Shown here piece after piece: positions 3,772-60,913 of a DNA stretch of 60,913 nt. The notes under the pieces were generated by a model. That model ran no database searches. It was not told the origin of the DNA and worked only from the letters and a program-made list of their open reading frames with translations. The stretch is from a virus: the IMG/VR virus record IMGVR_UViG_3300025706_000005. One strand, given 5' to 3'. Position numbers and translations under genes: made by a program. Each line of letters begins with the position of its first letter. Position 1 is the stretch's first letter.

Positions 3772-3807
3772 GGCTGTAATATACCTTGTTGTAGCGATTA
3801 ACGCAAC

Positions 3808-4107
3808 CTATTTCTTTTGGTCGCTGATTTCCATGAGATACTTGTAAACGCTGTCGGCCTTCCCGTCCCAGTAAAGCGTCCGCGTTGCTTTGATTGGCCG
3901 GACCTGGTAGGTGAAGCCGTCCTGTTCAAAGGTGAAGCCTGGGACCTGTGACCTGGGGATGACGACGTAGCTTTTCCCGGCATGGCCGCCGATGGCTACT
4001 CCTGCCACCAGGGCCACGGCCAGGACAATGAGAAGCGGCGCCGAATACCTAATGATGGTCCAGAGTATCCAGGGAACGTGACGGACCATGAGAAGGCGCT
4101 CGATCAT
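3808..4107 (-). CDS. Membrane protein, 99 aa
   Basis: Start trimmed to the ATG at 4107, which forms an ATGA overlap with the upstream stop. Hydrophobic span VPWILWTIIRYSAPLLIVLAVALVAGVAIGG. The longer 169-aa version has a low-complexity R/G extension overlapping the upstream gene. Confidence 0.55.
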   Translation of the reverse strand: MIERLLMVRHVPWILWTIIRYSAPLLIVLAVALVAGVAIGGHAGKSYVVIPRSQVPGFTFEQDGFTYQVRPIKATRTLYWDGKADSVYKYLMEISDQKK

Positions 4108-14445: not shown

Positions 14446-14637
14446 TCAGGTCGGCAACTTAAACCTTGCCTTCAGCTGCTCGGTGACGAAATGGATGGCT
14501 GCCAGGACCAGGGGGACGCTTACCTCGACCGGCATATCCCGGAGCCCTGGGACTGTTGTTGCCAGGTAAGATGCCAGGCTGCCGGCGCCTGCGGCCATGC
14601 CGTAGCGTGGGGCGTGTTTCTGGAATTGCTGTTTCAT
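14446..14637 (-). CDS. Small membrane-associated protein, 63 aa (holin/lysis-accessory candidate by position)
   Basis: ATGA-coupled to the upstream enzyme gene. Hydrophobic stretches GMAAGAGSLASYLATTV and VSVPLVLAAIHFV. Confidence 0.45.
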   Translation of the reverse strand: MKQQFQKHAPRYGMAAGAGSLASYLATTVPGLRDMPVEVSVPLVLAAIHFVTEQLKARFKLPT

Positions 14638-15071
14638 TTTGTTATCCTGTCGATGATGTTTAAATACCAGCTCTGCTGGTTCAAGGTCGCGGCCAGCAGT
14701 TCAAAGAAAGCCTGCTTGCTGGAGCTGATGCCAGGGCCCTTCCGTCCGTCCGGCAGAACAATGTCGTCGTATCCATTGCCGACGGCGATGCAGCCTTCCA
14801 GTTGCTCGGCCAGGTTCGCGCAATGAACCAACACGCCTTCGCGGAAAGGAACATTGTTCAAAAGAAAAGTCCAGGCCTTCAGTCTGTTGCTGAAGTGCCT
14901 GGTGCAAAGATACTGGCCGGCGGGGATGCGGCTTATCTTCTTTGCGTTGTTCTTCCACGGCAGTTCCAGCGTGCAGCAGAAGGGGATTGCACCCTTCTTC
15001 ATCACCCCGAAAGTTCCATATTTCGGGTCATCGCATATCCTGATAGTGTCAATCTCAATCAGCTTTTTCAT
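14634..15071 (-). CDS. DUF5675-like protein with a YkuD-like His/Cys motif, 145 aa (candidate cell-wall enzyme)
   Basis: ATG at 15071 in an ATGA overlap with the giant ORF stop. RIPAGQYLCTRH ... VLVHCANLAEQLEGCIAVG resembles the IPAGxY ... HxGN ... GCI pattern (from memory). Confidence 0.5.
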   Translation of the reverse strand: MKKLIEIDTIRICDDPKYGTFGVMKKGAIPFCCTLELPWKNNAKKISRIPAGQYLCTRHFSNRLKAWTFLLNNVPFREGVLVHCANLAEQLEGCIAVGNGYDDIVLPDGRKGPGISSSKQAFFELLAATLNQQSWYLNIIDRITK

Positions 15072-18000
15072 TTTACCGCCTTCCATTTTTTCACCAGCTC
15101 AACCTGCTTGTGACGGATAAGATGGTCGATATTGTCCAGGGATTTCTGGAGTTTCTTCTTCATTGCCGGGTTGTCCTTCGCCTCTTTATTCAACTCGTTC
15201 TTCATTTTACGAAGCCCGATGATGATGCCGTCCATGCTTCCGGGCACGCTGTCCTTCTGCTCTTCCATGTAAAGGTTCCAGATTGCCATCTGGCCAGGCG
15301 TCGCCCGTCCATTGGCAACCGTCCACGAAATCGTGCCTTCCTTCGACGGGCCGCCCAGGTCCTTGAATACTGTGGTTTTCTCGGTCTTTTCCAGGCCTCC
15401 GCCGATGTTCCAGTAATAGAGCTTTCCGGCCAGGGGGACGGACTGCCAAATATCCCAGTCCGCAATCTTCACGGCCTTTCCGTCTTGGACCGCGCCTACT
15501 GTCCTGGCAACGTCTTTGATTGCGCTCTCAAAAATACGGAATGGCGGAGCAACGATGTGGCTCAAGGCTTCAGCAAGTTCCAGCTTCTCGCCCTGGGGTC
15601 GGAATTGATAAATCTGATACTTGGTGAAGCCAAATAGCTTCAGCAGGTTGTCCACGGCGGTCTGTCCCAGACGCAACGGGCGGCCAGATAAGAAGTCTTT
15701 GATGGTGTCGCTGGTCATACCCAGGGCGATGGCGCCTCCGATGAAGGCCGCCAGCATACCAGCTGCGCGCTTGCGGACAGCCGGGTCCTTGTGCTTCAGC
15801 ATTTTGAAGAGCTGTTTCCGATAATTATTTAACTGCTTTATCGGATATTGCCGGAGCATATAAAGCGTCCTCAAGTTTCCGCCAGTTGAATAAAAAGGCG
15901 GAAGCTCAATCGGGTCAGCTGGGTGGAAGTCAAGTAGGACGTTGAACATGGCCAGCATGGTGTTGTCGGTGAGTTCGCCCTTCTTAAACTCATTCGCTGT
16001 TTGTTCCGCCAGGTCGGCTCCGACGTATTCCGTCAGCTCTGTCACCAGGAGCTTGCGCTGCTTCGGGCTGTTGGCCATGCTCCGATATTTGTAGAAGGCA
16101 GCATTAATCAGGTTGTTCTTCGCAAAGCGGTCGAAGGATGCCAGGCCAGACAGCTTAAAAACTTTTTCCATCGTCTTCGCCAGTTTCGTGGGCTCGGTAA
16201 ATTCGACGGCCAGGTTTTCAATTCCAAAGTCTTTCAGCACGTTGACTTTATTCTTCGACGTGATTGCCTTCAGCCAGTTCCAGGGCCCGGCAAAGCCGAC
16301 GGCAAAGGCCTGGTCCTGAAGCTGAGTGATGGCGCTGTGAATATGGCCCAGAGTTTCGATGTATTCAATGGTTCTGAAGGTGGACCAGAAATTTGTCATG
16401 GCCGTTGGAGAGAAGTAGCTGTTGAGAAGATACTTGGCGCGCGCCTCTGCGTCGCGGGTCAACTGGCCCTTCTCTATTAAGCTGTCCAGAACCTGCCCGA
16501 TGCTCTGCGGAACGTCCAGCTGCTCGTCCTTCAGGACTGCATACTGGCCAAAAAATTTCCGCATTTCAATACTCTCGGTCATTCCGTCGATGTATTTGAG
16601 AAGTGCGATGTCGCTGTGGTCGTAATAGATGTTAAGCTCCGGGCCGATAAATTCCACCATGCGCGCCTCTGTAAATCCGGGCTTCGGAATTTTCAGGCCG
16701 GCGGCATTGTATCCTCGGATTAAGGAGTTAATGAGCTTCCAGCGTTCTTCATTGGTCAGGGGTCGCTGCTTGCTTACCTGCTCCTGAATACGGCCCTGAA
16801 GCTCGTCATTCATGTCTTTGATGCGCTCGTCCAAGGCAGCTCGTTCTTTTGCGATGGATACTTGCAGTTCCTCTTCAGCCTTCTTCTGCTTCTCCTTGAT
16901 GCCGGGGTCCACGGCCTTCATCTGCTGCTGGGCCTGCGGTTCCTGCTGAAGTAGGGCCATGTATTTGGCCTGGAGTTCCGCAATTCTGGCGCCGGTCTTT
17001 TCTGTGATTTCTTTCAGGCGCTTTTCATAGTTTGCTTCCAGCTCCTTGATTTTGGCGTCGGCCTTCTCCCGCATGGCCTTTTCTTTTTCGGTGACGGCCT
17101 CCCGGATAACTGGATCGGCGTCGCCGTAGATATACTGCATGAAGCCTTCAAGGTCGCTGGTGGACCTGGGGGCATAAACATTCTGCCAGCCCATGTCAAA
17201 GCCGGCGCGCTTCGCCTCTGTGTAGATGCGGTCCAGGGCCGCGCGCTTCATGGCGTATTCGGCTTCCATGCCGTATTTCTTATTGAACCTCTCGATTTCC
17301 TTGTCCCAGCCATTCTTCTCCGCCAAGTCGTAGCTGGCCTTGTCCAGCTCATTCATGGCGCGCTTCTTTTGAAGGAACGGAATAACCATCATCCTCATTT
17401 CATTCCTGAAGCGCACTTTGTCCCGGACATATCGGCGCAAAGATACCCGTAAATCCGGGGCGATATTGAGGAGCTGGTCGCTGATGGGCACCACGGCCTT
17501 CTGCAAGAAAGTTCCTTCCTGCTTAATCTGCCGCAAGGCGCGCAATTTCTCCGGCTTCTTTTTCGCCTTCAGGCCCTTCATCTTCTCAAGGTTCTGCTTG
17601 TAGAGAAGGTCCAGGGCTTCGGGTTCGTCCTGTCCGATTGGCTGGCTGCCCATCATCCGGGCCTCGGCCTCGGAAAGCGAATATCTTACGTCGTGCTGTC
17701 CAGGAACGTCAGGCAGTTCCGCCCATAAGTCTGCCGCGTCAGCAGGCTGAAGGCTGAATTGCTCTCCGGCCTCTCGCCATTTCAGAACGTCAGATTTTTT
17801 GATGGTCTTGCCGGCGTAGAAATTGTCGATGTCGGCCATGATAACCGATGTCGGCGTTCCGTCAGGATATTCGTATTCAAAGACGCGCAACGGGCGCTCA
17901 TAATATCCGCTGGTGTTTAAGTCGCCCAGGCCTTCCCATAAGTCGATGACGATTTCTCCATTCTTCCCGCTGATGTATTGCTCCAGGGCCCTTCTCTGCT

Positions 18001-21000
18001 GCGGGTTCGGAGCCGTCACCATGTCCAGGGTTCCGCTGTTGTAGTCCATGCGGATATTCCCGGCAGCCATAAACTCTCTCATGCCGGCTGTTCCGCCAGG
18101 CATTTCTTCGTCGGCCTGCCCGATATCCCGGTGGTCCATCTGTCTCAGGCCGGCGCTGCCGCCGAATTTCTTACCAGAGAAGTCCAGGTATGAGCCTTTG
18201 GAATTGATGTAGCCGGCTTCTCTCAAGTCTGAAGTCGTGCCGAAATACCTGGTGACTTTCGCCGTTAGCCTGTCGGCGTCCGTCTTCTCGTATTTCCCGT
18301 GGCCCAGGGCGTATCTGATGGCTTCTGCGTGGTCGCCAGTCAGATCGCTCTTGAAGTTGGAAATAGCTCTCTTCGCGTCGTCCGGGCCTCTCCAGTCGTA
18401 TCCCAGGCGCTTCATGTAGGAATTGACCTTCGCCCATTGAGAGCGACGAATACTGTCAGGGGAGTAGATGGTGACGCTGCCGTCGTCGTGGAAATTAACC
18501 ATCGGCTTCATGGCCTCGCCTTCTCCGGCAACGGAGAATTGAGGCAAGGCCATGTTTTCTATTTCTATGGCGTCTGCTTCGCTCGGGGCAATCATGCCCA
18601 GGTCCCAGCCGTCTTCCGGCAGATATTCCCGGACTGGCACCCAGTCGTAGCCAAGCTGCCTGGCCGCTTCCCAGCGGTGGTGTCCGTCCACGATATAAAG
18701 GCCATCGGCGTCGCGCTCAACAATGATGGGCGGCAAGTCGATTTCTCCGGCTTTGATTATGTCCTTCATCTTCTCGACTTTGGCCCGTTCCTTCATGTCC
18801 TCGGTCGGCATGAGTTCGGAAGTCTTCGCCAGAACCATGTCCAGGAGCTTTCCGCCTTCGCTTACCACGTTCTTGTAGTCCGGGCTTGGCTTGGCGTCGC
18901 CGGTCCACGGCAGGCGGCTGTCGGGCACGCTGCCGGCTGGCTGGGTTGTGGTCTTCGGCTGGTCCGGCAGAGCCTGGACCTTCCTTGTTTCAATACTGAA
19001 CATGGGCAGGCCCAGCTCGGCAGCCTGCTTCATGGGTTCGGTAATGCGGATTGCCCAGACCTTTGTTTTCCGGCCCTGGTCGTCTTCGATTTCCCAGGTT
19101 TCAATCTGGCCGGCAGCCGGGTCCAGGGCCTTCGCTGCGCGCTGCATGGCGCGCGCGAAATTGAGACTGGATTTCCCTTCCGGGTCATAAAAGGAAGCCA
19201 TGCCCTCGCCGCCGATTTTCAGGTTCTCGGTCAGGACGTAGGCGTTCCCATTCGGATAGACGTTCTCGCGCTCGATAAGGCGCCTGGCAACGTCCTTTCC
19301 GACGTATTCAGCGATCTGCGCCTCGTCCTTCATCTTTCCGATGGTCTGGTAGGTTTCCTGGTTCTTTGGAACAAAAGCCAGCTCCTTCGTCTTTGGGTCG
19401 TAGGCAACCTTCTCGACGTAATTTGAGAGCTTGTATCTTTCGGCCTGGGTTTCTCCGGTGGTCCAGGTGACTGCCGGATATTCGTCAGTCGCGGCCTTGA
19501 TGATTGCCAGGCGCGCGGCCAGGTCGTTCCAGTTCTTTCCCCAGGGCGCCCATTCCGGCCTGCCAGAAACCTCCTGCCTATCTCTGGCAGACATTTTTCT
19601 TTCTTCCTCGTTAAATATTTCAACGGCCATCTCTCTGGCAAAGTCAGCGTCTGGAGCATCACCTGGTCCGTCGCCCTCTCTTATATCAACAAAATGCTGC
19701 CCGTCGTTGCTTTCAAAGGCCCAGGCACCATAAGGTCTGCGATCTGTTGGTGGCCTATACGCTTGCAGAGTAATATCTGGAATAGCGTAGGTTTTTTGTG
19801 CCGCGCTCTCCGGCTCAAAATATCCACCTTTCTGGACTGCTGCTTCGTGCCAATCGCTCTGGGCTTCGTCGATATGCAGGACACTTCCCAGGCCAGAGTC
19901 CGGGCTCCGGCGCGCCAGGTATTCTCCTACACGGAGCCGGAGAACCTGGTTAATGTCGGCTTCGTCGCCGTAAGCGTGGCCTACCGGGGTCCGATAGCGA
20001 AGTCCTATTTTCTCCTGCGGAATTGTCAGCAGGATTTCAGTATGGTTCTGGCCGCCTCGCAAAACGTAGTCTGATTTTCCCCACTTTGATTTTCCAGTTG
20101 CCGGTTCGATGCGATAATACTTTTCAAATTCATAGAAGTTTTGTTCGTTGGCGTATTCCTTTGCCGCGTCCATCGTGTCAAAGGCTTTGTCTTCTTCAAG
20201 ATACTGGGTCTGAAATTTTCCGTAATACGGGTCTTTGTAAATCAATATATTCGTTCCGTCAAATTTCTTGGCCTTGACGGCCTTGACCATGTTGTCGCCA
20301 CGCCTTGCGTGCGGAAAATTGATGGATAGTTCTATCTCTTTTTCGTCACCCCATTCCAGCTTTGTCGGAGCCTTTGCGCGCTGGATGACTTGGCGCTGGG
20401 CCATCGTCATTGTATTTTCCAGCGTCGTCCCGGTATAGATAACGGCGTTTTCTTCTGGTCCTGGATTGACCTCTTCAAGATGCCAGTAATTCGGACCTGA
20501 AGACCTGATGTGATACCTCAAGCCATCGTCCGCTTTTGTTTCGTAATAGGTGTCGCCGGTTGCTGTTTTGCGTTCCAGCCATACCAGCTTCTTTGCATAG
20601 GTTGGCTTCCTGGGCTCTGGTTTTGGCTGACCGCCAGGGGCAAGCGGCCCCTTGTATATCGGCTTCAGCTCGATGGCCTTCTGTTTGATGGCGCTTATTA
20701 GCTCGTCTTTGGTAATGGTCTGGCCTGGAGCCTGTTCGTCCAGCCATTTCAGGATGCCGGTTTCCTTCAGCTCGTCGGCTTTTGTGCCGCGTCCGCTGGA
20801 GGGGTCCAGATATTTCCGCCATTGTGCTGCCGGCGCAGCCTTCATCTTGGCTTCGCTGACGACTTTCTCCAGGTTGGAGTAAAGCCCTGTTTCCTGAACC
20901 TGATACGGAAGACCAGGTATCTGCGCCTGGCCAATTTCACCTGCCTGCGCCTGACCGGACAGGAAAATGTTGTTAGTCCGCTTCAGCTCTTCCACGGATC

Positions 21001-24000
21001 GACGGAGTTGCCCGACAACCGCTTCCCGGTAGTCCTTTAGGTGTTGCAGTTTCTCCAGGCGCCTGGCCTCATTCATCTTCCCGATGGTGGTCTTCTTTCC
21101 ACGGAATACTGTCGGGGTATTGTTCGGCTCATACCGGAGCTTGGCGGTTTCGCGGATTTGCTTGTCCAGGATGTTGATGGCGTCGAAAAGGTCATTGGCC
21201 GTCATGCCTTCGGTTCCGGGGACAGGGGGCGTCGTAGCAGGCGCCATGCTCATGGCCGGGCCTTCCGGCAGCTCTTCTGTTCTGGCGTCGATAACCAGGG
21301 CCGGCAGGCTCTTCTTGCCTAATACGGCCAATGCCGCAAGGCGGTGGCCGCCTTCCAGAATGTAGTAGCCTTCATTGTCCAGGACGGCAATCAAAGGCTT
21401 TATCTGTCCGCTGGCCTTTATGCGCTGCGCCAGCTCTTCGGACCATTCAATATCGTCCTTCGTGACATAAAGGTCCCTGGGCTTGGTCACGTTGAATTGG
21501 TCTAATCCTATTTCCCGGATGCCCGGAAGCTCCTCGTATTCGCCTTCGTTGAAGGTGGCGCTGATGCTGCTGGTGTTCGGTATGTCGTCCAGGACCTCCA
21601 GACCAGATACCACGGCGCCGGCTCTGGGCGGCTCTTCAAAAAGGCCCAGGCGTTTCTTCGCGGCCTCTACTGTCTCGCCTTCCTTCATCATCCAATGCGG
21701 ACTGTCTTTCCCGCCTTTGAACAGGACGTATGAAAAGAGCCGGTCGGCCTCGTTCTCGCCGTAGTTCTCGATTATCTTTGCTCCGTCGTAGCCCAGAGCC
21801 TCCAGGACCTGCGGGTCCATCGTCGCCCAGTCCACGTTCCGCTTGCCGTCCTCGCCTTTTGGCGCCATAAAATCGAAGTGCTGGAAGGTGAAGGTTTCTT
21901 CATCGCCGTCCACGTTCTTGTATTTCTTCCCGACGAAAGCCTGGAGCTTCTTGATGTCTTTCTGGCTCGTCGTGTCAAAGATGTTCCTGGTATCCACCAG
22001 GAATGAGTGAACGGCGCCGGCTCCGCCTGGGGCGTGCCCGGCAAAAGTCCTGGCGAATTGCGGTTCCGGGGTGAAGAATATTCCGCCGTAATCCTGGCCT
22101 TTTCCCAGGTTCTCTTCCGTGACCTGGCCGGCAACCCGTCCTCCCAGGACCAGCTTTTCTCCGATAATTTTCTCGGAGCCTCCATGATAGAGCCGGAGAT
22201 ACCTTTGCTGGGCCGGCTTCGGCGCTGCCGGCGCTATGCTCATTTGCGGAGCCTCGGCTTTTCTGGCCTTTGCGATGTCGCGCGCAATGGCTATTTCTGC
22301 TCCGGCTTCGTCGATGTAAACGTGGCCGGCAGGCAGGCCCTTGCTGTTCATATAGGTAATGCGCCAGCGGACGCCGCCGTTGTTGGCCAGCTCTGTGGAG
22401 TTGGCCCTGGAAAGGAAGCTGCCGTCCTGGAAGACATAAGAAGACCGCTTCGCCAGGACCTCCTTCGCCGTAGGCAACTGCATCTGGATTGTGGCTCTGA
22501 TGCGCTCCGGGGCGTCCGGGTCAAAGTTCTCCAGGTCCGCCGGCAATTCAGGGATTTGCTGTTTCCCGATTTCTTCAAGAAACTTATCCTGCTCGGCTTT
22601 GCTAAAGAGCTTCATCTGGGCTGCTGCCGCGCGCTCGGCTTCGTTGTCGTTGAAAAGGGGAAGGTCCTCGGCGCCACGGGCCTGGGCCGCTTCTTTCTCG
22701 GCCTTCTCCCGCTTATATTGCTCGATGGCCTGTCGCTCCGGGTTCACGGCCTGGCCAAAAAGGTCGGTCGCGGCAAGGGCGGTGCGGCGGTCCCAGGGCA
22801 ATTTTTTTTCTGGCTCTGCTTTTTCGGAAGTTGCAACACCTGTTATTTCAAAAGCCTTTTCTTGGGTTATTGGCCTGGCCATTCTGAAAGACTTTGAAAC
22901 ATGGAAGTATTTTCCACCAGGAGTTCTTATTACGCCTTCCTTCGCGTTGTCATTAATCCGCATGGCTGCGCTTTTAAATTCTTCGCCAGAAGTAGGTTTT
23001 TCAATGACTACTTCTTTTCCGTTGTAAATTGCGACGTGATGTTTTTTAATCGCTTTCGTGGTTGGTGTTTTTTGCTTCAGAAACTCCGGCGCCTCTTTCT
23101 CTTCGGACCAGGGCTTCTTGTTCGCAATCTCGTAGGTAAGCCCGGCCATAATCGGCTTCCCGGTCACGGCGTCTTTGGCTCCGCTTGGTGCGGGAACGGC
23201 ATGAGATACCCAGGCCAGGATGGTAGGCTTCTTCAGGCTCTTCACGGCCAGGAGTCGTCGGTGGCCATCTACCAGGCTCAACCTTCCGTCTTCCATTTCC
23301 GTGATTTCAACCGGGGGATATTGCTTCCCCTCCTTCATCCATTGAGCATACCTTTCGTCGTCGCCCCTCTTCACGGGGTCCAGGCGTCCTTCCCGGTCCA
23401 GCTCTGGCGCCAGAACGTCGGACACCTTGACCTCCATTAAGTGATCGATGGGATGGCCGTAAAGACTATTCAGCTTATCGTCGATGCGCCAGCTGCCTAC
23501 TGGCGGAACATCGATTTCAACCGGCGTCGTGCGGCTACTGGCGCCTTCGGCGTATGGAGCATAGAGCTTCCGCCGGTATTCGCTTGCCAGAATGTAGGCG
23601 CCTTTGTCAGCAGGCGGCTTCATTTCTGGGGCCAGCTCTTCAGCTGCCTTTGGAGCTTCAGGTATGGGTGCCGCGAACAAATCCATCTGGCCGGGTTTGG
23701 CTGACAACATGGTTTCTTTTCCTGGCCGATACTTGCCCTGGGCAACAATGCTTTCGTCGTTGAAGACAGCCAGGGCGTCGCCAGGATGGTCGTTCACGAT
23801 GTAGCTGTCGAATCCCTGCTGCTTTATCATGTCGATTACAGACGGCTTCTCCAGTATTTCCCAGTCGCCAGCCTTCGCTTCTTCGGTCCACCAGCTTTCC
23901 CAGTCAGCCTCTTTCTTCAGGGCTGCCTGGAGGCGCTTCTGATGCGTCGGGTTGTGATAGTCGAAGACGTTTTTGACGTTGACCTTTGCGGTTGTTATCC

Positions 24001-27000
24001 TGGGCCCGTATTGCTCGGCCAGGGCCGGCTCTCTGTGGAAATAGAGGGCTCCGCCTGCTCTGTCGCCCATGCCGGTCTGGAGCTGCGGATACCATTGCTT
24101 CGCCCCGTGGTAGAGAGGAACATTGTTCCAGGTGTCAGCCAGTCTTTTCGGGGCCACGCTGAAGGCTCGGCCCGTGGGCCTGGTTCCGGCCATTTCCGCG
24201 CGCGCCATCGCCGCCTTCTGCATTTCAAAGGTGCCTTCCCAGCTGGGTCCTCGCTGCCGCAAGACGGCAACAATGTCTTTGATGGCTTCGTCGATAAAGC
24301 GTTTGCGGTCCAGAGGCTTTCCGTTCCGCCCGATAAGGTTTTTGATTTTTGCGAAAAGCTGGTTCAAAAGCTGTCTGAAATAATGCAGCAGTCTTCCGGG
24401 GATGCCGGAAACAATCTGCTCCTTCCAGACGCGCTCCAGCTGGCGCGCCGCCCATTCGCTTCGGAGATATTTGTAGGCGGCTGCCTCACCGAAACCTTCT
24501 TTTCTCTGCTTCCAGGTCTGGTAGTAGTCCGGGAAGGCTCCGTATCGCGCGCGAAATTCTTTCCATTCCTTCTCTTCTTCGTAGCCGGCGCCATGTTTCT
24601 CCGCAATCCGTCGCCATTCCTGGTTGTAGTTGGCTTTGGCCCATTCCCATTCAGAACGGAAAAGGTCGTCCACCTGCTTCCTGATGCCAGGGTTTAAGGC
24701 CAGAACGATGTCGATGCCCAGGTGTCCTACTAGCTCATGCGCCAGAACATACTCCAGGCGCTCCGGGCCCAGGTTCGCGTTTATCCAGAGAAGTGAGTGC
24801 CCGACGCCTCCATGTCCACGGATAACAAAGCCCTCAATCATTCCTTCGCGCGCAACCGGAAGCTCCGCCGTCAGCGGTGCGTCTTCAGACACCACCAACT
24901 TTACCTTGTCCATTAGCTTTGCCATCTTCATCTTGGCGATGACTTTGGCATTGATTTCATCCAGGACCATCTTGTTGGTCAGGAGCTGCTTCGGAGTGGG
25001 ACGGCCCAGGGAAAACGGAAGTTCGCCGGTGTCGGCGTTGGGGTCGTAATCCAGGTTGCTGTCGTCGTATTCAGAACGCGGCGGCTCCGGTATTTGTCCG
25101 TTCTCGCCTGTCTCTGCTTCGTTCTGTATTTGGGCGTCCTTTTCCTTCTGCTCTGCCGGCGTCTGGGTGTCGATTTCTTCAGGAGTATCCAGGTCCACGT
25201 TCTTGCCAGGCGTCAGGTCTTCGGATACGGCCTCCTGCATGGTGTCTTCGTTGGCGTTCCTGGCTTCCTGGGGCTCGTTGGCAGCCAGGTTGCCCTGTTC
25301 CTCCTGAACAGCAGTCATGTAGTTGATATATTCCTGCTCGTCCTTCAGAGATTTCCTGGCCTGCTCCTCAACTGATTTCCAGAGCTGTGGCTTCGTCCGG
25401 TGCTTTCCGTCTTGATACCAATTGATTGCCGTGAGTATGGCCTCGCCGTGGCTCTGGGGCTCCTGGTATTCGGTTTCCTGCTCTTCCATATCAAAAGCCC
25501 GTTCCGTGGTTCCGGTAATGGCTTCTGATAAAACGCCAGGAAGGTCTGTGTCGATGGCTGGCTTGCGGTAGCCGTTAGGGCCAAGTATTCGCCCGTCTTT
25601 CTCCAGGATATCATTGTCGGTCATTCTGAAGAATTGTTTGATACGGGCCTTGCCCTTTGTCGCCCATTCCTCTCCGAAATAGGCTTTCATGCTCATGTAA
25701 GGTTCAAGGGTGGCCGGGTCTGTTGACCGCATTAAATCCAGCACGCTGTCGTTGAGATTAAACTCGGCCAGCTCTTTCTCGTAAATCCTCGCTCCGGCTT
25801 CAAAGATGTCTTGCCCGGTGTGCATATCAGCGCCGTAGGAAATGATGTATCGGCCAGGCCTCATGCCCATTTTCTGCATGCCGTAATTCTCAAGCTCCCG
25901 GCGCGCCTTGCGGACGGCCTGGTCATCAATTCTGAAGGTAATGGCCCTGGCGGCTTTAATGGCCTCATTCAGCTTGTTGGGGTCGCCCTGGTAGGTCTTC
26001 CAGTCCAGGACCAGCTTCTTCATGGCCGCATATTCCGGGACCTGGGCCGCGCGTATCCTGATGAATTTTGGATTGCCGGCCAGCTCGTATCCGCCTTCGT
26101 TCAGCTGTTCCCGGCTGATTAAGTGGGTCACAACCTCCGGCGGCTGATAGTCCGGCTTCTTAATGGGGTCATATCCGCGCTCACTCAACGGCAGATCGCG
26201 GCGCCCTGTCTTTGCCCAGGTTAAAAAACTGGCCATGTCCGGGAAGACGTAGTGCCCTTTGGCCAGCCTGATGTCGCGCTTCCCGCCTTTTTTGATTACG
26301 GCTGCGGTGTTCCTGGTGTATGCTTCCAGGGCCTCTTCCGGGCTCTTCCAGCCAATCATCGCAACGTGCTTGTCCAATCCTCCGTCTTCCATGAGACTGC
26401 GCTGGTTCACCACGACAACCGGGGCGTTCTTGGCCGGCGCCTGGTCATTGGTGTAGGCCCAGAGCTGCGGGTGGTCCGGCGCTTCCGTGTCAGGCAGTTT
26501 GCCGTAGGGGTTCTCGGTGACAAGCTGAACAGTCTGCTTTTTGCCTGATTTTTGGATGGTTCTAAAATCTCCGGGATTGCTGGTGACTTCGATTTTTACG
26601 CCGGCGATGGTCTTTGTCCTGGCGGCAATGGCTCTTTGCTCGGCCTCTTTGGCCTTTCTGTTCGCTTCCGCAACAATGGCTTCGGATTTCTTCTTGCCGG
26701 CTTCCGTGGTCGCGGTCATGTCCGGGTATTCCCGGAGAACGGACAGCGGAACATCCTTGCCAGCGTCCAGGGCCGCCTGAACGATGGCCCGGTGAGTAAA
26801 GCGGTCGTCCCTGGCTTTCTTGGCCTGGCTGATGGCCTTTGCATCCTTCGGGACAGAGGCTTCGTATTCAGCCTTCCAGGTGTCGGCCAGCTCCTTGCCG
26901 CGCGCCTCCTGGCCAAAAGGATTGAAGAGCATGGGATTGCCACGATACTGGCGCTCTACTGCGACAAATTGCTTGAACGGCTGGGCCCAGGGCACAAGGT

Positions 27001-30000
27001 TCTTCTCTCTCTTTTCCTTGAGCTGCTGATTGATGAAGGTGGTGGCTGCCTGCTTCGGGTTCTGGGCGTCTATGCGCCTGCCATCGGCCTCGGCCAGCCT
27101 GAAAAGGGCGTGCTTCGCCTCCGCCCCTTTTACTGGGTGGATGGTGGAGTCCTTGATGTCGCTGATTTCTTCGGCTGAAATACCGCTGTCCGCCAGCCTG
27201 GCTTCCAGATTGGCGGACAGCTCTTCAACCTCTTCCGGCAATAATTTGACTTTTGCTTCGGCTTCGGTGCCTTCGGGCCAGGTCAGTTGACCGGCTTCTT
27301 GTTTTCCAGGTAAAGGCGCTCTACCTCCGCCAGTTCCGCCAGCACCTTCGGGTTCTTCTCGCCTTCCCGTAATTTCGCCAACTTCTCTGGTATCGGCAGC
27401 CCTTCTACCCCCAGCCTGCGTGCGAGATTTTCTCGGCTCATAAGAGTTTTTCTCCTCGCTATAAACGTAATTTAATTTGTTTGCAATTTCAAGCAATTTC
27501 TTTTCTTTCATCGCGTCGGCCAGTTTGTCGGCCTCTTTTATCTTTGCTTGAACGTCGTCGCCCGGCTTTACCTCGGACACCCCATAATCAATTCCCAGGG
27601 CTCCGGTCGGCATACCCGCGTGTTTCGGATGCTTGGTTTCAGTAAGGCCTTTCTCGACTTTCTTGGCCTCGATGTTTGCTGCCGCCGCCTGCATCACGGC
27701 TTCAATTTCTTCGGCGGTCTTATAGGGAAATACGGCCTTAAACTCTTCGCCTTTGCTGCGCTCGATGACGCCTTTGGCGTCTTTGACTGCTTTGGAAAGG
27801 TTCTCTCCCCATATTTCGGCCATCAGCTCATTGGCGCCGTCGTGGCCGTAAACCTTATTTACTCCGCCCAGGTTCTGCCCGTCCGCCATGACGACGGCAA
27901 AAGGGATTTGCCGTTGCTGCATTTCCTTGATGGCCCGGCTTACGGCTCCGGCGTTGTAGGTGTCCGGGATGATGGTATCGTGGAAAGCGTCAGCGGCTTC
28001 GGTGAGAAGACCTTTTATTTCCTCGTCATCGGTCCTTTTGGCCGCGTTCCTATATCGGATAGTCGGGTCCAGAATATTGTCGATTACTTTGTCGTCGGCC
28101 CGGAGTTCCGGGACCGGAGCTGCCGCAATCACGGCTTCCCGCCGGTCCTTCTCTGGATCGGAGTATTCGCCCGTTTCTGTCGGAGTCTTGGCTTCAGGGG
28201 TCGGGGCGGTAAGCATTTCTCTGGTGGGCGGAGCCTCCAGCTTTTTGGCTGGTGGTTGTTCCGTCGGCTCCGCCCCGGCCTTTGGAGCCGGCGCCGTGGG
28301 TTCGGTTCGCTTCTGTTCAAAAGGACCTTCAGGAGCTTCCTGGTCAGCCTTCTTCTTGCCAGGCTGTCCCTTGTTCTCCATGAAATTGAGCATGGTTTCA
28401 AGGTTGATGCGTTTTACGTCCAGGTGGTCCAGCTCTTTCGTTGTGGCTGCGCGCTCCTCCGCGCTCATGGCCTGCCAGTCCTTGCCTTTCATTACGTCGC
28501 TGATGTCGGCCTGGTTCCGTTCCATTTCCAGCCGGATGGCTTCGGCGCCGCGTGCATAGAAGTCGTCCATCTTCCCGGCCTTCGCGGCCTGGTCTGCCGC
28601 CCGGTATTTGATGGCCGCTTCAGGGGTGGTGAAGTTGCCTCTTACTCCCCAGGCATGGAAAAGCATGATGCTGGCAGCTGCCGTCGCCAGCTCTTCAGGC
28701 GGCGGTGTTTCTCCGCCTTTCATCTTGGCCGCCAGGTATTCTGTGCCTGCGGACACGGCGCCTACTGTCAGGGTCTGGCCGGTGGTCTTGGCGATCTGTT
28801 CTGCCCGGCTGATACTCTGCATGACGGCCTTCTGGCCGATACCGGGCAAGGCGCCTACTGCACCCAGGGAGCCGAATACAACCGCTGATTTGCCTATGTC
28901 GGCAACCGAAAACTCCTGCTCCGGGTCCAGGACCTGCCCTGAAGCTCCGAATATGGCGCCTGTGCCTGTGCCTTCGATGATGTGCTGCGCTGCGGCGCCG
29001 GCCTTTGTGCCTGTCCTGGTGGCTCCGGCCAGGGCTTCCGGGACAAGGGCGGTAGCGCCCAGGGCCCTGCCTTCTGCCGCCAGCTTGGTCAGTCCTGCTT
29101 TGGATAGGGCTCCTGCACCCTTGAGCGCCGGCAATGACGCTGCAAAGTCGATAAGGCCCATTGTGAAGTTCTTGGCCGCAATCATACCGGAGTTCATTCC
29201 GTAGAATGTTTCCGGGTCGTCCTTAATCTCGTCCGGGGTGGTCAAGGCAACCGCGTCAACCGGGGAAATCGTAGTTCCCAGGCGCTTGGTGGCGCCCATT
29301 GTAGCTGCTGCCAGGCGTCCTTTCACGCTGGCCAGCAGCTCCGGCGTCATTCCGCCAGTCAGATACTTGCTCTGGGTCAGGCCGTCGGCCCATACCATTG
29401 CTTCACGGGCCAGTTCCTTAACCTTCTGCTGATATGCCGGGGTGTTCTGGTCCAGGCCCTTCAGTTGGTTCGCGGCCAGGTCCTGAAATCGCTGCTCCGT
29501 CGCGGCCTGCCGATATTCCGATACCTCTTTTAAAAACTCCTGGTCGCCGGAGCCCAGTTCTTCTGGCTTGGCTTTGGTCTGCGGCCTGGCTTCAAACTCT
29601 TCTTTCGGCTTTGCCGGTTGCTGCGGCTTCTGCTGGCGCTGCTTCTTTATGTCCATGCGGACCTGGGCCTGGGTCTTTGCAGCTCCAGTGATGGCGTCAG
29701 GTTCGGGTTCGGCAGGCGGTGGGACAATGGGTTGTGCTGTTATGTCCGGCGCGTTTTTAATTAGTATCGGGCGGACAGTGGGTTCGGTCTGGAATGTGGA
29801 CTGGGCCTCGTCAAGTCGGAGTCCGGCGTCAGGTAGCGGACCTATGGCCGGTGGCTCCGGCGGCAACATACTGGCAGGAGTATTTGCGCGTATCCTATCC
29901 AGCATATCCCGGTAAGGAACAACTGTTGTTTCTTCTGTTTCGGTAATGCTGGGTAGGTATTGTTCCGACTGCTTTGAAACACTGATACCGGAAATCGCTT

Positions 30001-30097
30001 CAAGGGCGCTCTTAAACTGTTCCGGTGTAGGGTTGTCGCTGGGAAATTCTACCTCATAGACCTGCCCGGTCCTCGGATGCGTTATTTCGTAGAGCAT
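15068..30097 (-). CDS. Giant multidomain (polyvalent-type) virion/ejection protein, 5,009 aa
   Basis: Uninterrupted 15,030-nt ORF in the internal-virion-protein position of the late operon. It carries multiple recognisable enzymatic motifs, listed as separate features. Confidence 0.9.
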   Translation of the reverse strand: MLYEITHPRTGQVYEVEFPSDNPTPEQFKSALEAISGISVSKQSEQYLPSITETEETTVVPYRDMLDRIRANTPASMLPPEPPAIGPLPDAGLRLDEAQSTFQTEPTVRPILIKNAPDITAQPIVPPPAEPEPDAITGAAKTQAQVRMDIKKQRQQKPQQPAKPKEEFEARPQTKAKPEELGSGDQEFLKEVSEYRQAATEQRFQDLAANQLKGLDQNTPAYQQKVKELAREAMVWADGLTQSKYLTGGMTPELLASVKGRLAAATMGATKRLGTTISPVDAVALTTPDEIKDDPETFYGMNSGMIAAKNFTMGLIDFAASLPALKGAGALSKAGLTKLAAEGRALGATALVPEALAGATRTGTKAGAAAQHIIEGTGTGAIFGASGQVLDPEQEFSVADIGKSAVVFGSLGAVGALPGIGQKAVMQSISRAEQIAKTTGQTLTVGAVSAGTEYLAAKMKGGETPPPEELATAAASIMLFHAWGVRGNFTTPEAAIKYRAADQAAKAGKMDDFYARGAEAIRLEMERNQADISDVMKGKDWQAMSAEERAATTKELDHLDVKRINLETMLNFMENKGQPGKKKADQEAPEGPFEQKRTEPTAPAPKAGAEPTEQPPAKKLEAPPTREMLTAPTPEAKTPTETGEYSDPEKDRREAVIAAAPVPELRADDKVIDNILDPTIRYRNAAKRTDDEEIKGLLTEAADAFHDTIIPDTYNAGAVSRAIKEMQQRQIPFAVVMADGQNLGGVNKVYGHDGANELMAEIWGENLSKAVKDAKGVIERSKGEEFKAVFPYKTAEEIEAVMQAAAANIEAKKVEKGLTETKHPKHAGMPTGALGIDYGVSEVKPGDDVQAKIKEADKLADAMKEKKLLEIANKLNYVYSEEKNSYEPRKSRTQAGGRRAADTREVGEITGRREEPEGAGGTGGGRAPLPGKQEAGQLTWPEGTEAEAKVKLLPEEVEELSANLEARLADSGISAEEISDIKDSTIHPVKGAEAKHALFRLAEADGRRIDAQNPKQAATTFINQQLKEKREKNLVPWAQPFKQFVAVERQYRGNPMLFNPFGQEARGKELADTWKAEYEASVPKDAKAISQAKKARDDRFTHRAIVQAALDAGKDVPLSVLREYPDMTATTEAGKKKSEAIVAEANRKAKEAEQRAIAARTKTIAGVKIEVTSNPGDFRTIQKSGKKQTVQLVTENPYGKLPDTEAPDHPQLWAYTNDQAPAKNAPVVVVNQRSLMEDGGLDKHVAMIGWKSPEEALEAYTRNTAAVIKKGGKRDIRLAKGHYVFPDMASFLTWAKTGRRDLPLSERGYDPIKKPDYQPPEVVTHLISREQLNEGGYELAGNPKFIRIRAAQVPEYAAMKKLVLDWKTYQGDPNKLNEAIKAARAITFRIDDQAVRKARRELENYGMQKMGMRPGRYIISYGADMHTGQDIFEAGARIYEKELAEFNLNDSVLDLMRSTDPATLEPYMSMKAYFGEEWATKGKARIKQFFRMTDNDILEKDGRILGPNGYRKPAIDTDLPGVLSEAITGTTERAFDMEEQETEYQEPQSHGEAILTAINWYQDGKHRTKPQLWKSVEEQARKSLKDEQEYINYMTAVQEEQGNLAANEPQEARNANEDTMQEAVSEDLTPGKNVDLDTPEEIDTQTPAEQKEKDAQIQNEAETGENGQIPEPPRSEYDDSNLDYDPNADTGELPFSLGRPTPKQLLTNKMVLDEINAKVIAKMKMAKLMDKVKLVVSEDAPLTAELPVAREGMIEGFVIRGHGGVGHSLLWINANLGPERLEYVLAHELVGHLGIDIVLALNPGIRKQVDDLFRSEWEWAKANYNQEWRRIAEKHGAGYEEEKEWKEFRARYGAFPDYYQTWKQRKEGFGEAAAYKYLRSEWAARQLERVWKEQIVSGIPGRLLHYFRQLLNQLFAKIKNLIGRNGKPLDRKRFIDEAIKDIVAVLRQRGPSWEGTFEMQKAAMARAEMAGTRPTGRAFSVAPKRLADTWNNVPLYHGAKQWYPQLQTGMGDRAGGALYFHREPALAEQYGPRITTAKVNVKNVFDYHNPTHQKRLQAALKKEADWESWWTEEAKAGDWEILEKPSVIDMIKQQGFDSYIVNDHPGDALAVFNDESIVAQGKYRPGKETMLSAKPGQMDLFAAPIPEAPKAAEELAPEMKPPADKGAYILASEYRRKLYAPYAEGASSRTTPVEIDVPPVGSWRIDDKLNSLYGHPIDHLMEVKVSDVLAPELDREGRLDPVKRGDDERYAQWMKEGKQYPPVEITEMEDGRLSLVDGHRRLLAVKSLKKPTILAWVSHAVPAPSGAKDAVTGKPIMAGLTYEIANKKPWSEEKEAPEFLKQKTPTTKAIKKHHVAIYNGKEVVIEKPTSGEEFKSAAMRINDNAKEGVIRTPGGKYFHVSKSFRMARPITQEKAFEITGVATSEKAEPEKKLPWDRRTALAATDLFGQAVNPERQAIEQYKREKAEKEAAQARGAEDLPLFNDNEAERAAAAQMKLFSKAEQDKFLEEIGKQQIPELPADLENFDPDAPERIRATIQMQLPTAKEVLAKRSSYVFQDGSFLSRANSTELANNGGVRWRITYMNSKGLPAGHVYIDEAGAEIAIARDIAKARKAEAPQMSIAPAAPKPAQQRYLRLYHGGSEKIIGEKLVLGGRVAGQVTEENLGKGQDYGGIFFTPEPQFARTFAGHAPGGAGAVHSFLVDTRNIFDTTSQKDIKKLQAFVGKKYKNVDGDEETFTFQHFDFMAPKGEDGKRNVDWATMDPQVLEALGYDGAKIIENYGENEADRLFSYVLFKGGKDSPHWMMKEGETVEAAKKRLGLFEEPPRAGAVVSGLEVLDDIPNTSSISATFNEGEYEELPGIREIGLDQFNVTKPRDLYVTKDDIEWSEELAQRIKASGQIKPLIAVLDNEGYYILEGGHRLAALAVLGKKSLPALVIDARTEELPEGPAMSMAPATTPPVPGTEGMTANDLFDAINILDKQIRETAKLRYEPNNTPTVFRGKKTTIGKMNEARRLEKLQHLKDYREAVVGQLRRSVEELKRTNNIFLSGQAQAGEIGQAQIPGLPYQVQETGLYSNLEKVVSEAKMKAAPAAQWRKYLDPSSGRGTKADELKETGILKWLDEQAPGQTITKDELISAIKQKAIELKPIYKGPLAPGGQPKPEPRKPTYAKKLVWLERKTATGDTYYETKADDGLRYHIRSSGPNYWHLEEVNPGPEENAVIYTGTTLENTMTMAQRQVIQRAKAPTKLEWGDEKEIELSINFPHARRGDNMVKAVKAKKFDGTNILIYKDPYYGKFQTQYLEEDKAFDTMDAAKEYANEQNFYEFEKYYRIEPATGKSKWGKSDYVLRGGQNHTEILLTIPQEKIGLRYRTPVGHAYGDEADINQVLRLRVGEYLARRSPDSGLGSVLHIDEAQSDWHEAAVQKGGYFEPESAAQKTYAIPDITLQAYRPPTDRRPYGAWAFESNDGQHFVDIREGDGPGDAPDADFAREMAVEIFNEEERKMSARDRQEVSGRPEWAPWGKNWNDLAARLAIIKAATDEYPAVTWTTGETQAERYKLSNYVEKVAYDPKTKELAFVPKNQETYQTIGKMKDEAQIAEYVGKDVARRLIERENVYPNGNAYVLTENLKIGGEGMASFYDPEGKSSLNFARAMQRAAKALDPAAGQIETWEIEDDQGRKTKVWAIRITEPMKQAAELGLPMFSIETRKVQALPDQPKTTTQPAGSVPDSRLPWTGDAKPSPDYKNVVSEGGKLLDMVLAKTSELMPTEDMKERAKVEKMKDIIKAGEIDLPPIIVERDADGLYIVDGHHRWEAARQLGYDWVPVREYLPEDGWDLGMIAPSEADAIEIENMALPQFSVAGEGEAMKPMVNFHDDGSVTIYSPDSIRRSQWAKVNSYMKRLGYDWRGPDDAKRAISNFKSDLTGDHAEAIRYALGHGKYEKTDADRLTAKVTRYFGTTSDLREAGYINSKGSYLDFSGKKFGGSAGLRQMDHRDIGQADEEMPGGTAGMREFMAAGNIRMDYNSGTLDMVTAPNPQQRRALEQYISGKNGEIVIDLWEGLGDLNTSGYYERPLRVFEYEYPDGTPTSVIMADIDNFYAGKTIKKSDVLKWREAGEQFSLQPADAADLWAELPDVPGQHDVRYSLSEAEARMMGSQPIGQDEPEALDLLYKQNLEKMKGLKAKKKPEKLRALRQIKQEGTFLQKAVVPISDQLLNIAPDLRVSLRRYVRDKVRFRNEMRMMVIPFLQKKRAMNELDKASYDLAEKNGWDKEIERFNKKYGMEAEYAMKRAALDRIYTEAKRAGFDMGWQNVYAPRSTSDLEGFMQYIYGDADPVIREAVTEKEKAMREKADAKIKELEANYEKRLKEITEKTGARIAELQAKYMALLQQEPQAQQQMKAVDPGIKEKQKKAEEELQVSIAKERAALDERIKDMNDELQGRIQEQVSKQRPLTNEERWKLINSLIRGYNAAGLKIPKPGFTEARMVEFIGPELNIYYDHSDIALLKYIDGMTESIEMRKFFGQYAVLKDEQLDVPQSIGQVLDSLIEKGQLTRDAEARAKYLLNSYFSPTAMTNFWSTFRTIEYIETLGHIHSAITQLQDQAFAVGFAGPWNWLKAITSKNKVNVLKDFGIENLAVEFTEPTKLAKTMEKVFKLSGLASFDRFAKNNLINAAFYKYRSMANSPKQRKLLVTELTEYVGADLAEQTANEFKKGELTDNTMLAMFNVLLDFHPADPIELPPFYSTGGNLRTLYMLRQYPIKQLNNYRKQLFKMLKHKDPAVRKRAAGMLAAFIGGAIALGMTSDTIKDFLSGRPLRLGQTAVDNLLKLFGFTKYQIYQFRPQGEKLELAEALSHIVAPPFRIFESAIKDVARTVGAVQDGKAVKIADWDIWQSVPLAGKLYYWNIGGGLEKTEKTTVFKDLGGPSKEGTISWTVANGRATPGQMAIWNLYMEEQKDSVPGSMDGIIIGLRKMKNELNKEAKDNPAMKKKLQKSLDNIDHLIRHKQVELVKKWKAVK
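15698..17110 (-). other. Giant ORF aa ~4330-4800: long coiled coil followed by a hydrophobic C-terminal segment
   Basis: KEKAMREKADAKIKELEANYEKRLKEITEKTGARIAELQAKY ... then RKRAAGMLAAFIGGAIALGMT. Confidence 0.5.
18608..18865 (-). other. Giant ORF aa ~3745-3830: ParB/Srx-like domain 3
   Basis: LPPIIVERDADGLYIVDGHHRWEAARQLGYDWVPVREY. The DGHHR codons were verified at 18674-18688. Confidence 0.6.
21278..21535 (-). other. Giant ORF aa ~2855-2940: ParB/Srx-like domain 2
   Basis: IKPLIAVLDNEGYYILEGGHRLAALAVLGKKSLPALVID. Confidence 0.5.
21698..22210 (-). other. Giant ORF aa ~2630-2800: ADP-ribosyltransferase-like domain 2
   Basis: LRLYHGGSEKI ... DYGGIFFTPEPQFARTFAG ... VHSFLVDTRNIFD ... LGYDGAKIIENYGENEADRLFSYVLF. 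Confidence 0.55.
23198..23515 (-). other. Giant ORF aa ~2195-2300: ParB/Srx-like domain 1
   Basis: YPPVEITEMEDGRLSLVDGHRRLLAVKSLKKPTILAWV. The DGHRR codons were verified near 23255-23270. Confidence 0.55.
23738..24145 (-). other. Giant ORF aa ~1985-2120: ADP-ribosyltransferase-like domain 1 (ART-PolyVal-like, H-Y-[EDQ] type)
   Basis: VPLYHGAKQW ... GGALYFHREPALAEQYG ... VKNVFDY ... GFDSYIVNDHPGDALAVF. Confidence 0.5.
24668..24865 (-). other. Giant ORF aa ~1745-1810: HExxxH motif region (possible metallopeptidase)
   Basis: GHGGVGHSLLWINANLGPERLEYVLAHELVGHLGIDIV. The HELVGH codons were verified at 24722-24739. This is not the canonical HExxH spacing. Confidence 0.3.
27488..28000 (-). other. 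Giant ORF aa ~700-870: GGDEF-like nucleotide cyclase domain (KGEEF variant, no RxxD I-site)
   Basis: FAVVMADGQNLGGVNKVYGHDGANELM ... VIERSKGEEFKAVF ... ALGIDYGVS ... EADKLADAMKEKK is collinear with the DxDxFKxxNDxxGHxxGDxxL ... RxGGEEF ... SxGxx ... ADxAxYxAK layout. The KGEEF codons were verified at 27740-27754. Confidence 0.6.
28628..29200 (-). other. Giant ORF aa ~300-490: Gly/Ala-rich hydrophobic segments
   Basis: GMIAAKNFTMGLIDFAASLPALKGAGAL, GAIFGASG, SAVVFGSLGAVGALPGIG, ATAAASIMLFHAWGV. Confidence 0.5.
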
Positions 30098-30106
30098 TAT
30101 CGCCCT

Positions 30107-31450: not shown

Positions 31451-31462
31451 GGCGGCTCCTTG

Positions 31463-51151: not shown

Positions 51152-51173
51152 TACTATCCTCCCTTTGCGGCTC

Positions 51174-60892: not shown

Positions 60893-60913
60893 ACCTGTAA
60901 TATAGTGTTATAA
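60787..60913. repeat. Terminal overlap, copy 2 (identical to 1..127)
   Basis: Exact 127-nt identity with the first 127 bases. Confidence 0.95.

Follow-up and report, generated by a model that had tools for sequence, protein, structure and literature searches.

What does a phage do with a single gene that fills a quarter of its genome? In the window, by which we mean the whole 60,913-nucleotide stretch of the IMG/VR virus record IMGVR_UViG_3300025706_000005, one open reading frame (ORF) occupies the minus strand from an ATG at 30097 to a stop codon ending at 15068 (15068..30097), with 5,009 codons besides the stop. The ORF takes up 24.7% of the genome, and its product, the giant protein, has a mass of 558.8 kDa and zero cysteines. 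A first-pass annotation of the letters had given the same picture, a 5,009-amino-acid (aa) ORF of a quarter of the genome and about 550 kDa, leaving the strand unstated. We regard the giant protein as the largest of three ejection proteins of a short-tailed phage with a P22-type portal, a carrier of polyvalent effectors that is packaged and ejected, and assign this reading a probability of about 70%.

The ORF itself is real. An AAGGG ribosome-binding site lies 6-7 nt 5' of its ATG, and in each 1,000-codon block its codon usage follows that of the phage's structural genes (r = 0.84-0.89), as against r <= 0.20 in the two alternative frames. The window carries a 127-bp direct repeat at its ends (1-127 and 60787-60913) and therefore represents a circular genome assembled in full, of about 60,786 bp. 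The 5,009-aa gene was also called in ENA ERZ27257456, JGI 3300010429 and ENA ERZ761563, which are 100% identical to the window across the roughly 13.8 kb retrieved. That an assembly or sequencing artefact fused several genes into one is hardly credible: the same reads may underlie the three identical assemblies, but codon usage is uniform and in one frame along all 15 kb, and the same sequence recurs under MEGAHIT-style, SPAdes-style and JGI contig names. Full-length collinear orthologues are moreover present in other samples, one of 4,492 aa in the same genomic slot (relative P0006) and one of 5,020 aa (P0013), and these exclude a chance or artefactual ORF.

Enzyme domains of a polyvalent protein

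The giant protein is a phage-type polyvalent protein as defined by Iyer, Burroughs, Anand, de Souza and Aravind in 2017 (PMC5512222). This follows from its domain content, since the inorganic pyrophosphatase (InPase), ART-PolyVal, ParB/Srx, GGDEF and HExxxH modules have all been described for such proteins, and it bears out the first-pass annotation, which had invoked the same concept. All modules given below by their window coordinates lie on the minus strand. The GGDEF nucleotide-cyclase domain (27500..27940; aa 720-866), placed earlier at about aa 700-870, is recovered by Pfam with E 8e-12 and 45.7 bits, above the 23.8-bit gathering cut-off, and by NCBIfam. Aligned to the DgcB structure 6tts, it keeps the metal Asp, the guanine-contacting Asn and GHD Asp, the Arg and the EEF. 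Its signature reads R-S-K-G-E-E-F (KGEEF), in which Lys replaces the first Gly; the product of the domain, if any, may be other than cyclic di-GMP. The InPase domain (26291..26623; aa 1159-1269; Pfam PF18823, E 4e-11, above cut-off) belongs to a family specific to polyvalent proteins (PMC5512222) and is common to the relatives P0006, P0016, P0025 and P0056.

A putative zincin-type metallopeptidase region (24248..25000; aa ~1700-1950) contains HELVGH at aa 1787-1792, within the stretch of about aa 1745-1810 where an HExxxH motif had been noticed. The site is kept in P0006, P0013 and P0016; orthologous sequences show HEILSH, HEIVGH and HETLH, and the glutamate of a downstream (S/E/N)EW is also kept. 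Pfam has no match for the region, trimmed segments included, and the only hit is a motif-level one to M78 at E 0.15. An HEXXXH subset was described among the metallopeptidases of polyvalent proteins by Iyer et al. (PMC5512222).

Both ART domains proposed in the first pass were recovered, by different means. ART-PolyVal #1 (23750..24118; aa 1994-2116) carries the family motifs LYHG, GGALYF and GFDS and matches Pfam PF18760 at E 1e-5, with 26 bits below the 31-bit cut-off. The divergent ART-PolyVal #2 (21710..22207; aa ~2631-2796; motifs YHG, GGIFFT, GYDG and YVLF) is missed by Pfam, trimmed segments included. An independent profile was built from 85 ART domains of relatives, with the giant protein left out; its best match across all 5,009 aa is ART #2 (aa 2665-2793, 10.9 bits) and its second-best is ART #1 (7.6 bits), while 200 shuffles peak at 7.4 bits.

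The three ParB/Srx domains, likewise anticipated, are found by Pfam, PHROGs, NCBIfam and PDB sequence matches. The first (23198..23515; aa ~2195-2300; DGHRR motif) matches phrog_1033 and NCBIfam and is 45% identical to P0001, annotated as ParB/Srx, and 41-44% identical to a Dolichospermum phage protein. The second (21272..21535; aa ~2855-2942; GGHR motif) is matched by Pfam ParB_N, by the PDB entry for ParB 4umk (E 3e-7) and by NCBIfam. The third (18608..18865; aa ~3745-3830; DGHHR motif) has matches in PHROG (E 1.6e-15), NCBIfam SerK (E 1e-7) and Pfam, and is nearest to the SerK/SbnI kinase branch. A comparison of the giant protein with itself by BLAST revealed no internal repeats; the repeated domain types are therefore not recent duplications and were acquired separately.

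About 22% of the length falls into named families and about 78% matches no Pfam family, in line with the earlier statement that more than half carries no nameable motif. That statement had passed over the InPase domain, and about 75% of the length has detectable relatives. Pfam searches on the trimmed dark regions found nothing, NCBIfam found nothing besides GGDEF and ParB, and PDB sequence and profile searches with InPase, with the modules F3 and G introduced below and with two short carriers of the C-terminal block gave no match. No Pfam LPD family, MuF, portal, DarA-N or N4 RNAP anchor was detected in the giant protein. An AlphaFold model of aa 1740-2939 from the single sequence reached a pLDDT of 35, and no inference was drawn from it.

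Two candidate identities were tried and rejected. Pfam, NCBIfam and PHROG returned no single-subunit RNA polymerase domain and there is no similarity to N4 gp50, which speaks against an N4-like virion RNA polymerase; and neither the giant ORF nor its neighbours match the MuF (SPP1 gp7) head-morphogenesis domain, which speaks against a MuF-anchored effector.

A cysteine-free cassette at the end of the structural genes

The giant gene is the third, largest and last of a Cys-free trio (290, 447 and 5,009 aa) at the end of the structural module. Together the three products contain 0 Cys in 5,746 consecutive residues (window 15068-32335); in the rest of the proteome Cys makes up 1.165% of residues, against 0 of 5,009 in the giant protein (P about 3e-26). 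The 290-aa protein (31463..32335, minus strand), with one strong transmembrane helix at aa ~144-162, is a candidate small ejection protein, and the 447-aa protein (30107..31450, minus strand), which has orthologues in sister phages, is a candidate middle one. The avoidance of Cys extends to the relatives: 42 of the 88 that measure at least 2,000 aa have none, and the median is 0.02%. In seven inspected contigs with the C-terminal block and in four sister or related phages, the giant closes a run of two to four Cys-free genes, usually ordered from small through medium to large and flanked by genes that contain Cys.

Known ejection cassettes served as controls. P22 gp7, gp20 and gp16 (229, 471 and 609 aa) have 0, 0 and 0 Cys, T7 gp14, gp15 and gp16 have 1, 0 and 0, N4 gp52, gp51 and gp50 (150, 644 and 3,500 aa) have 0, 0 and 0, and a run of 218, 148, 83, 421 and 2,807 aa in phi24B has 0, 0, 0, 0 and 2. 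Suppression of Cys is conserved in the Schitoviridae ejection operon, where it has been ascribed to passage through the periplasm (PMC11445570). The place of the giant gene as the last of a Cys-free trio behind a P22-type portal, and the same small, medium and large Cys-free layout in P22, T7, N4 and phi24B, are two of our reasons for reading it as an ejection protein; gp47 of phi24B, itself polyvalent and found in virions, provides an experimental precedent. Cys-free gene runs could also provide a cheap, annotation-free marker of ejection or scaffold genes in phages without annotatable homologues.

These observations bear on an alternative in which the giant protein is not packaged at all and acts as a late cytoplasmic multi-enzyme, which counters defences or remodels metabolism inside the infected cell. 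Such a role would suit the domains, every recognisable one of which is a cytoplasm-acting enzyme, as well as the absence of sequence homology to known ejection proteins, and packaging is an inference here. We nevertheless consider it distinctly improbable. The gene closes the structural operon in the slot of ejection proteins, and a Cys avoidance common to two upstream genes and dozens of relatives would be pointless for an enzyme of this kind. Effectors made late would moreover come too late for the early, decisive stage of infection, and the polyvalent phi24B protein is a virion component.

The minus-strand gene order that leads to the cassette starts with the small terminase, the large terminase and the P22-type portal protein (51867..54053; Pfam PF16510, E 7e-32; PHROG match), which sets the virion type. 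Two small proteins without Cys or Trp follow in scaffold position (459 and 206 aa; window 49772-51855), between portal and capsid; the scaffolding proteins of P22 and T7 are likewise Cys-free. Then come the major capsid protein and seven proteins of 156-1,329 aa that could not be annotated; four of the seven exceed 700 aa. Tube, sheath, tape-measure, tail-chaperone and distal-tail proteins were not detected among the window's proteins. Since the portal is of P22 type and no tube, sheath or tape-measure protein was found, the virion is most likely short-tailed.

On the other side, the DUF5675 gene (14634..15086, minus strand; Pfam E 3e-22) lies 3' of the giant ORF and overlaps its 3' end by 19 nt. 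Its product is a C82-like peptidase lysin candidate (bioRxiv 10.64898/2026.04.11.717860); the gene is found directly 3' of the giant in the P0006 and P0016 phages as well, and a few genes 3' of it in the P0005 phage. This lysin candidate is the sole basis for the earlier placement of the giant gene just before lysis, as no holin-like gene follows it in the window. Beyond it lies a module of exonuclease, RecT, SSB and replication initiator.

A conserved backbone with exchanged cargo

An exhaustive HMMER search with aa 2950-4149, a 1,200-aa stretch that holds the modules G and F3, retrieved 5,142 representative proteins, 2,403 of them at E <= 1e-10, and many of the best matches are themselves 4,000-7,091 aa long. 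Giant relatives of 4,000-7,000 aa are common, and the first-pass annotation overestimated how unusual this protein is. When the ORF was compared with deposited phages by DNA and protein BLAST, matches were absent or confined to isolated modules, and a word-indexed protein search gave three weak matches for aa 3900-5009 but no match for aa 1-700 or for aa 4440-5009. These negatives of the indexed search are a matter of sensitivity and not of absence, because exhaustive HMMER found full-length orthologues that are 50-53% identical in the C-terminal part.

We mapped the whole giant protein onto 150 relatives listed out of the 5,142. In the P0006 sister phage (62.2 kb) the synteny is identical, with proteins of 1,134, 294 and 444 aa, the giant (4,492 aa) and DUF5675 in succession. 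Four conserved blocks emerge from the comparison of the orthologues, one of them a short linker at aa 2445-2519 that is described below. Block 1 (28319..29416; aa 228-593) is Gly/Ala-rich and common to P0013 only (31% identity), with no further homologues; block 2 (24254..27280; aa 940-1948) holds InPase and the metallopeptidase region and is 37% identical to P0006 and 31% to P0013; and the C-terminal backbone (aa 4131-5006) reaches 50-53% identity to both at E ~0. The enzyme modules between these blocks differ among the orthologues. In P0006, a strong ART-PolyVal domain (E 8e-17) takes the exact place of the giant protein's G module, and the stretch of aa 2520-3342 that comprises ART #2 and ParB #2 is missing. 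An ortholog search for swapped modules, suggested in the first pass, thus reveals a common backbone and an exchange of the cargo between its blocks, and the locus therefore records an arms race between phage and host.

Contigs of 61.6-62.9 kb hold further giants in the same slot, namely P0007 with RadC and ART, P0005 with SLT, InPase and ART, and P0016 with GGDEF and InPase; all three end in a C-terminal region unlike that of the giant protein. The neighbours of P0016 (983, 205 and 353 aa and DUF5675) are homologous to the window's 1184-, 290- and 447-aa proteins and DUF5675. That the same slot holds giants in these phages, one of them with an SLT transglycosylase, a hallmark of gp16, is a further argument for ejection. 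In the contigs L056, L057, L058 and L011 (61.6-62.9 kb), 20-24% of the genome is occupied by a giant of 4,100-4,900 aa in this slot; the cargo differs from one to the next (RadC/ART, SLT/InPase/ART, GGDEF/InPase and InPase/ParB/ART), and in some so does the C-terminal region. The data suggest that the phages of about 62 kb form a clade in which the slot is conserved and its content turns over.

The C-terminal backbone, or chassis (15080..17650; aa ~4150-5006), is all-helical, with a core of aa 4150-4340 and aa 4440-4907. A coiled coil noticed in the first pass at about aa 4330-4445 forms a long helical hairpin in the AlphaFold model (16772..17113; aa 4329-4442) and is a lineage-specific insertion inside the chassis. 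The C-terminal hydrophobic helix (15701..15766; aa 4778-4799; Kyte-Doolittle 19-residue mean 1.63), also seen then, is hydrophobic in five of five chassis homologues and helical in the model. We found the block in 33 IMG/VR viral contigs and in 6 contigs of metagenome-assembled genomes; the latter come from disparate phyla and therefore indicate no host. It stands at the extreme C-terminus in all 31 complete carrier ORFs (1,051-3,144 aa) and also closes three otherwise unlike proteins with GGDEF, RadC/JAB or G cargo. The neighbours of the 33 viral loci show almost no homology to the virion proteins of the window, T7 or P22. That the block is always C-terminal in its carriers, of which the smallest has about 1,050 aa, is consistent with an ejection backbone and counts among our reasons for this reading.

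For aa 3810-5009, an AlphaFold model based on a 27-row alignment reached a mean pLDDT of 75. Foldseek matched it in BFVD to a fragment of another giant phage protein (E 2.8e-18). Other significant matches include proteins of the gp16 class at E 1.6e-5 to 7e-4, with a probability of about 1.0 and TM-scores of 0.2-0.3, among them the 'internal core protein' of Ralstonia phage RSB3 (1.6e-5), the 'protein inside capsid D' of Marinomonas phage CB5A (4.5e-4) and SLT- or lysozyme-bearing proteins (E about 3e-4). The predicted fold of the C-terminal block weakly resembles core proteins of the T7-gp16 class, and this match may, despite its low TM-scores, add to the case for ejection.

The same search returned tape-measure and minor-tail proteins among its weak matches (E 0.02-0.5), and the sequence has long helical and Gly/Ala-rich stretches, both of which would suit a long-tailed phage whose tape-measure-like or other structural tail protein had acquired enzyme domains. 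With a P22-type portal, no tube, sheath, tail-chaperone or distal-tail protein detected, podovirus internal core proteins as the best fold matches and the relative P0002 located in an SU10-type podovirus, we consider such an origin very improbable.

Several points weigh against our reading of the giant as a packaged and ejected effector carrier. Packaging and ejection are predictions from the genes. Foldseek matched the model of aa 3810-5009 to no solved structure in the PDB; the TM-scores in BFVD are only 0.2-0.3 in a model from 27 sequences, long helical proteins match one another readily, and at weaker E-values the list includes tape-measure and SMC proteins. Alignment by hhalign to T7 gp16, P22 gp16 and N4 gp50/gp51 gave probabilities below 1%, and there is no sequence homology to the ejection proteins of P22, T7, N4 and phi24B (phmmer bits near zero). 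The tie to gp16-class proteins is hence organisational, with a fold that is possibly shared, and homology is undemonstrated. Absence of Cys is also a trait of scaffolding and some other virion proteins and is not exclusive to ejection proteins. As to the cargo, the ART and individual ParB matches fall below Pfam cut-offs, the metallopeptidase call is motif-level, and the GGDEF domain with its KGEEF signature is an enzyme by prediction. Finally, the hydrophobic helix at aa 4778-4799 may be buried rather than membrane-spanning. The first-pass annotation had proposed hydrophobic Gly/Ala-rich segments and effectors welded onto a membrane-active ejection protein. Gly and Ala do make up 32% of aa 251-500, and four indirect lines of evidence, from gene position, the Cys-free layout, the C-terminal block and its predicted fold, favour ejection; this region is only moderately hydrophobic, however, and its membrane activity is putative.

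Between the named domains lie modules of conserved, unnamed families. The G module (17738..18508; aa ~3864-4120) is an alpha/beta domain modelled at pLDDT above 90, with the invariant residues D3972, S3974, R3985, D3988-H3989-R3990 and R4016; it is carried by 112 of the 150 listed relatives and also occurs as stand-alone proteins of 230-340 aa, and it has no Pfam, PDB or Foldseek match. The enzyme-like F3 module (18980..20071; aa ~3343-3706), with neither a Pfam family nor a PDB profile match, contains LHIDEAQSDWHEA at aa 3407, the segment that had looked conserved in the first pass, and the invariant patterns E-x-Q-S, W..G..A.RY and G..........YD. A small module (20648..20932; aa ~3056-3150) recurs in 31-41 of the 150 listed relatives.

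Among short stretches, conservation between the orthologues peaks in a linker (22541..22765; aa 2445-2519) with three LF motifs (DLFG, DLPLFN and Q..LFS), which is 58-62% identical in all three orthologue pairs. P0006 shows QLDLFG and P0013 QMDLFG, while the giant protein contains QMDLF at aa 2137 and QMKLF at aa 2494 (window 22541-23689). These sequences resemble the bacterial beta-sliding-clamp-binding motif QL[SD]LF.

A further short motif, P-x-[F/M/Y]-S-[V/I/L/M], occurs at aa 1695, 1979, 2619, 2949, 3700, 3854, 4114 and 4139 (window ~17680-25015). In all, 10 copies were observed against 3.5 +/- 1.9 expected, and 8 of the 10 lie at module boundaries. In the relatives, the motif stands at the end of 34% of F3 modules, where the background is 2.4%, and of 18% of G modules, where it is 4.7%. 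The motif may mark sites of processing or serve as a structural end-cap.

The second option belongs to a different view of delivery, in which the protein is injected in one piece and acts, where the phage enters or on the DNA coming in, as a hub of tethered enzymes, HExxxH being no autoprotease and the F-S motif an end-cap. The virion RNA polymerase of N4, which has a metallopeptidase-like region, is packaged unprocessed (PMC5512222), the metallopeptidase of the giant protein lacks a Pfam match, and the junction motif marks no more than 18-34% of module ends in relatives. On the other hand, the HExxxH site and its downstream Glu are kept in orthologues, the motif is enriched and concentrated at module boundaries, and the targets of the modules need not be near each other. 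We therefore hold the intact hub to be possible but somewhat doubtful.

Proposed mechanism and comparison with known systems

As a packaged and ejected effector carrier, the giant protein would be synthesized late and packed into the capsid, probably by way of its invariably C-terminal block. By analogy with N4 gp50, T7 gp14-16 and phi24B gp47, it would leave the virion in extended form by way of portal and tail, accompanied by the 290-aa and 447-aa proteins, and help to bridge the cell envelope as part of a trans-envelope conduit; passage in an extended state would explain the suppression of Cys. The enzymes could then reach the cell with or ahead of the DNA and act on early host responses. 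Following the roles proposed by Iyer et al., GGDEF and the pyrophosphate-removing InPase might make or interfere with nucleotide signals, the ARTs might ADP-ribosylate host targets, and the ParB/Srx domains might nick or bind DNA in an NTP-dependent manner. Cleavage by the metallopeptidase at the recurrent P-x-[F/M]-S-[V/I/L] junctions might divide the chain into units.

A bolder version would make the giant protein a self-dismantling vehicle. A new C-terminal ejection backbone would carry swappable enzyme cartridges through the tail, which HExxxH frees at the junctions; the QLDLF-like linker would dock some of the pieces on the host sliding clamp; the very abundant G and F3 would represent new anti-defence enzyme families; and GGDEF-InPase would make or jam a nucleotide signal within seconds of entry. 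Taken jointly, these steps seem unlikely to us.

Much of this ground is already known: the description of polyvalent proteins dates from 2017, that of Cys-free ejection operons from 2024, and that of a polyvalent ejection protein verified in virions from 2026. The present locus is of value as a very clear natural backbone with swappable cargo, in which the sister phages of about 62 kb keep slot and backbone. It also brings to light G and F3 as two large enzyme-like families without a name, together with a C-terminal ejection backbone that is widespread and a candidate motif for processing or junctions.

Among known systems, the virion RNA polymerases N4 gp50 and DEV gp71, themselves 3,400-3,500 aa long, resemble the giant protein in being the Cys-free last member of a small, medium and giant trio (PMC11445570). 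The Schitoviridae giant combines an enzymatic cargo with regions that ejection and encapsidation require; it is packed into the head and then ejected (PMC11445570). Unlike these, the giant protein has no polymerase domain or homology, is encoded with a P22-type portal and bears an effector battery instead of one polymerase. T7 gp16 and P22 gp16, too, are the third and largest of a Cys-free trio that ends the structural genes; the C-terminal block has carriers as small as 1,050-1,300 aa, which is gp16 size, and the same-slot P0005 has the SLT domain typical of gp16. The giant protein itself differs from both in that it is without an SLT domain, sequence and profile similarity are absent and TM-scores are low.

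Rhodobacteraceae phage LS06-2018-MD07 (OP947163.1) encodes a protein of about 3,100 aa, WBK39883.1, whose CDS of roughly 9.3 kb takes about 22% of a 42.6-kb genome, a share like that of the giant protein. Its only annotation is 'methyltransferase', an 'internal virion protein' is encoded one gene away, and it has part of the G module at 45% identity. The stretch in common with the giant protein covers only about 100 aa, and the 3,051 aa retrieved hold no C-terminal block; WBK39883.1 is probably another under-annotated giant polyvalent ejection protein.

In the Shiga toxin phage phi24B, a short-tailed phage of about 58 kb, proteomics found the polyvalent gp47 (2,811 aa) in virions, and a role in ejection was proposed for it (bioRxiv 10.64898/2026.04.10.717836); like the giant gene it ends a run of Cys-free genes. 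It is about half the size, has LPD5, LPD1, LPD38 and MuF-C domains and shows no sequence similarity. The polyvalent proteins at large share with the giant protein the union of disparate conflict-type domains in one chain (ART-PolyVal, InPase, ParB/Srx, GGDEF and zincin-type peptidase), a gene near virion genes of portal and terminase type, and a predicted delivery with the DNA, whereas MuF, portal, DarA-N and N4 RNAP anchors and Pfam LPD families were not detected in it. With 5,009 aa and at least 13 modules, the giant protein comes near the upper end of 15 domains given for polyvalent proteins (PMC5512222), and it is an unusually large example of a kind of protein that has already been described.

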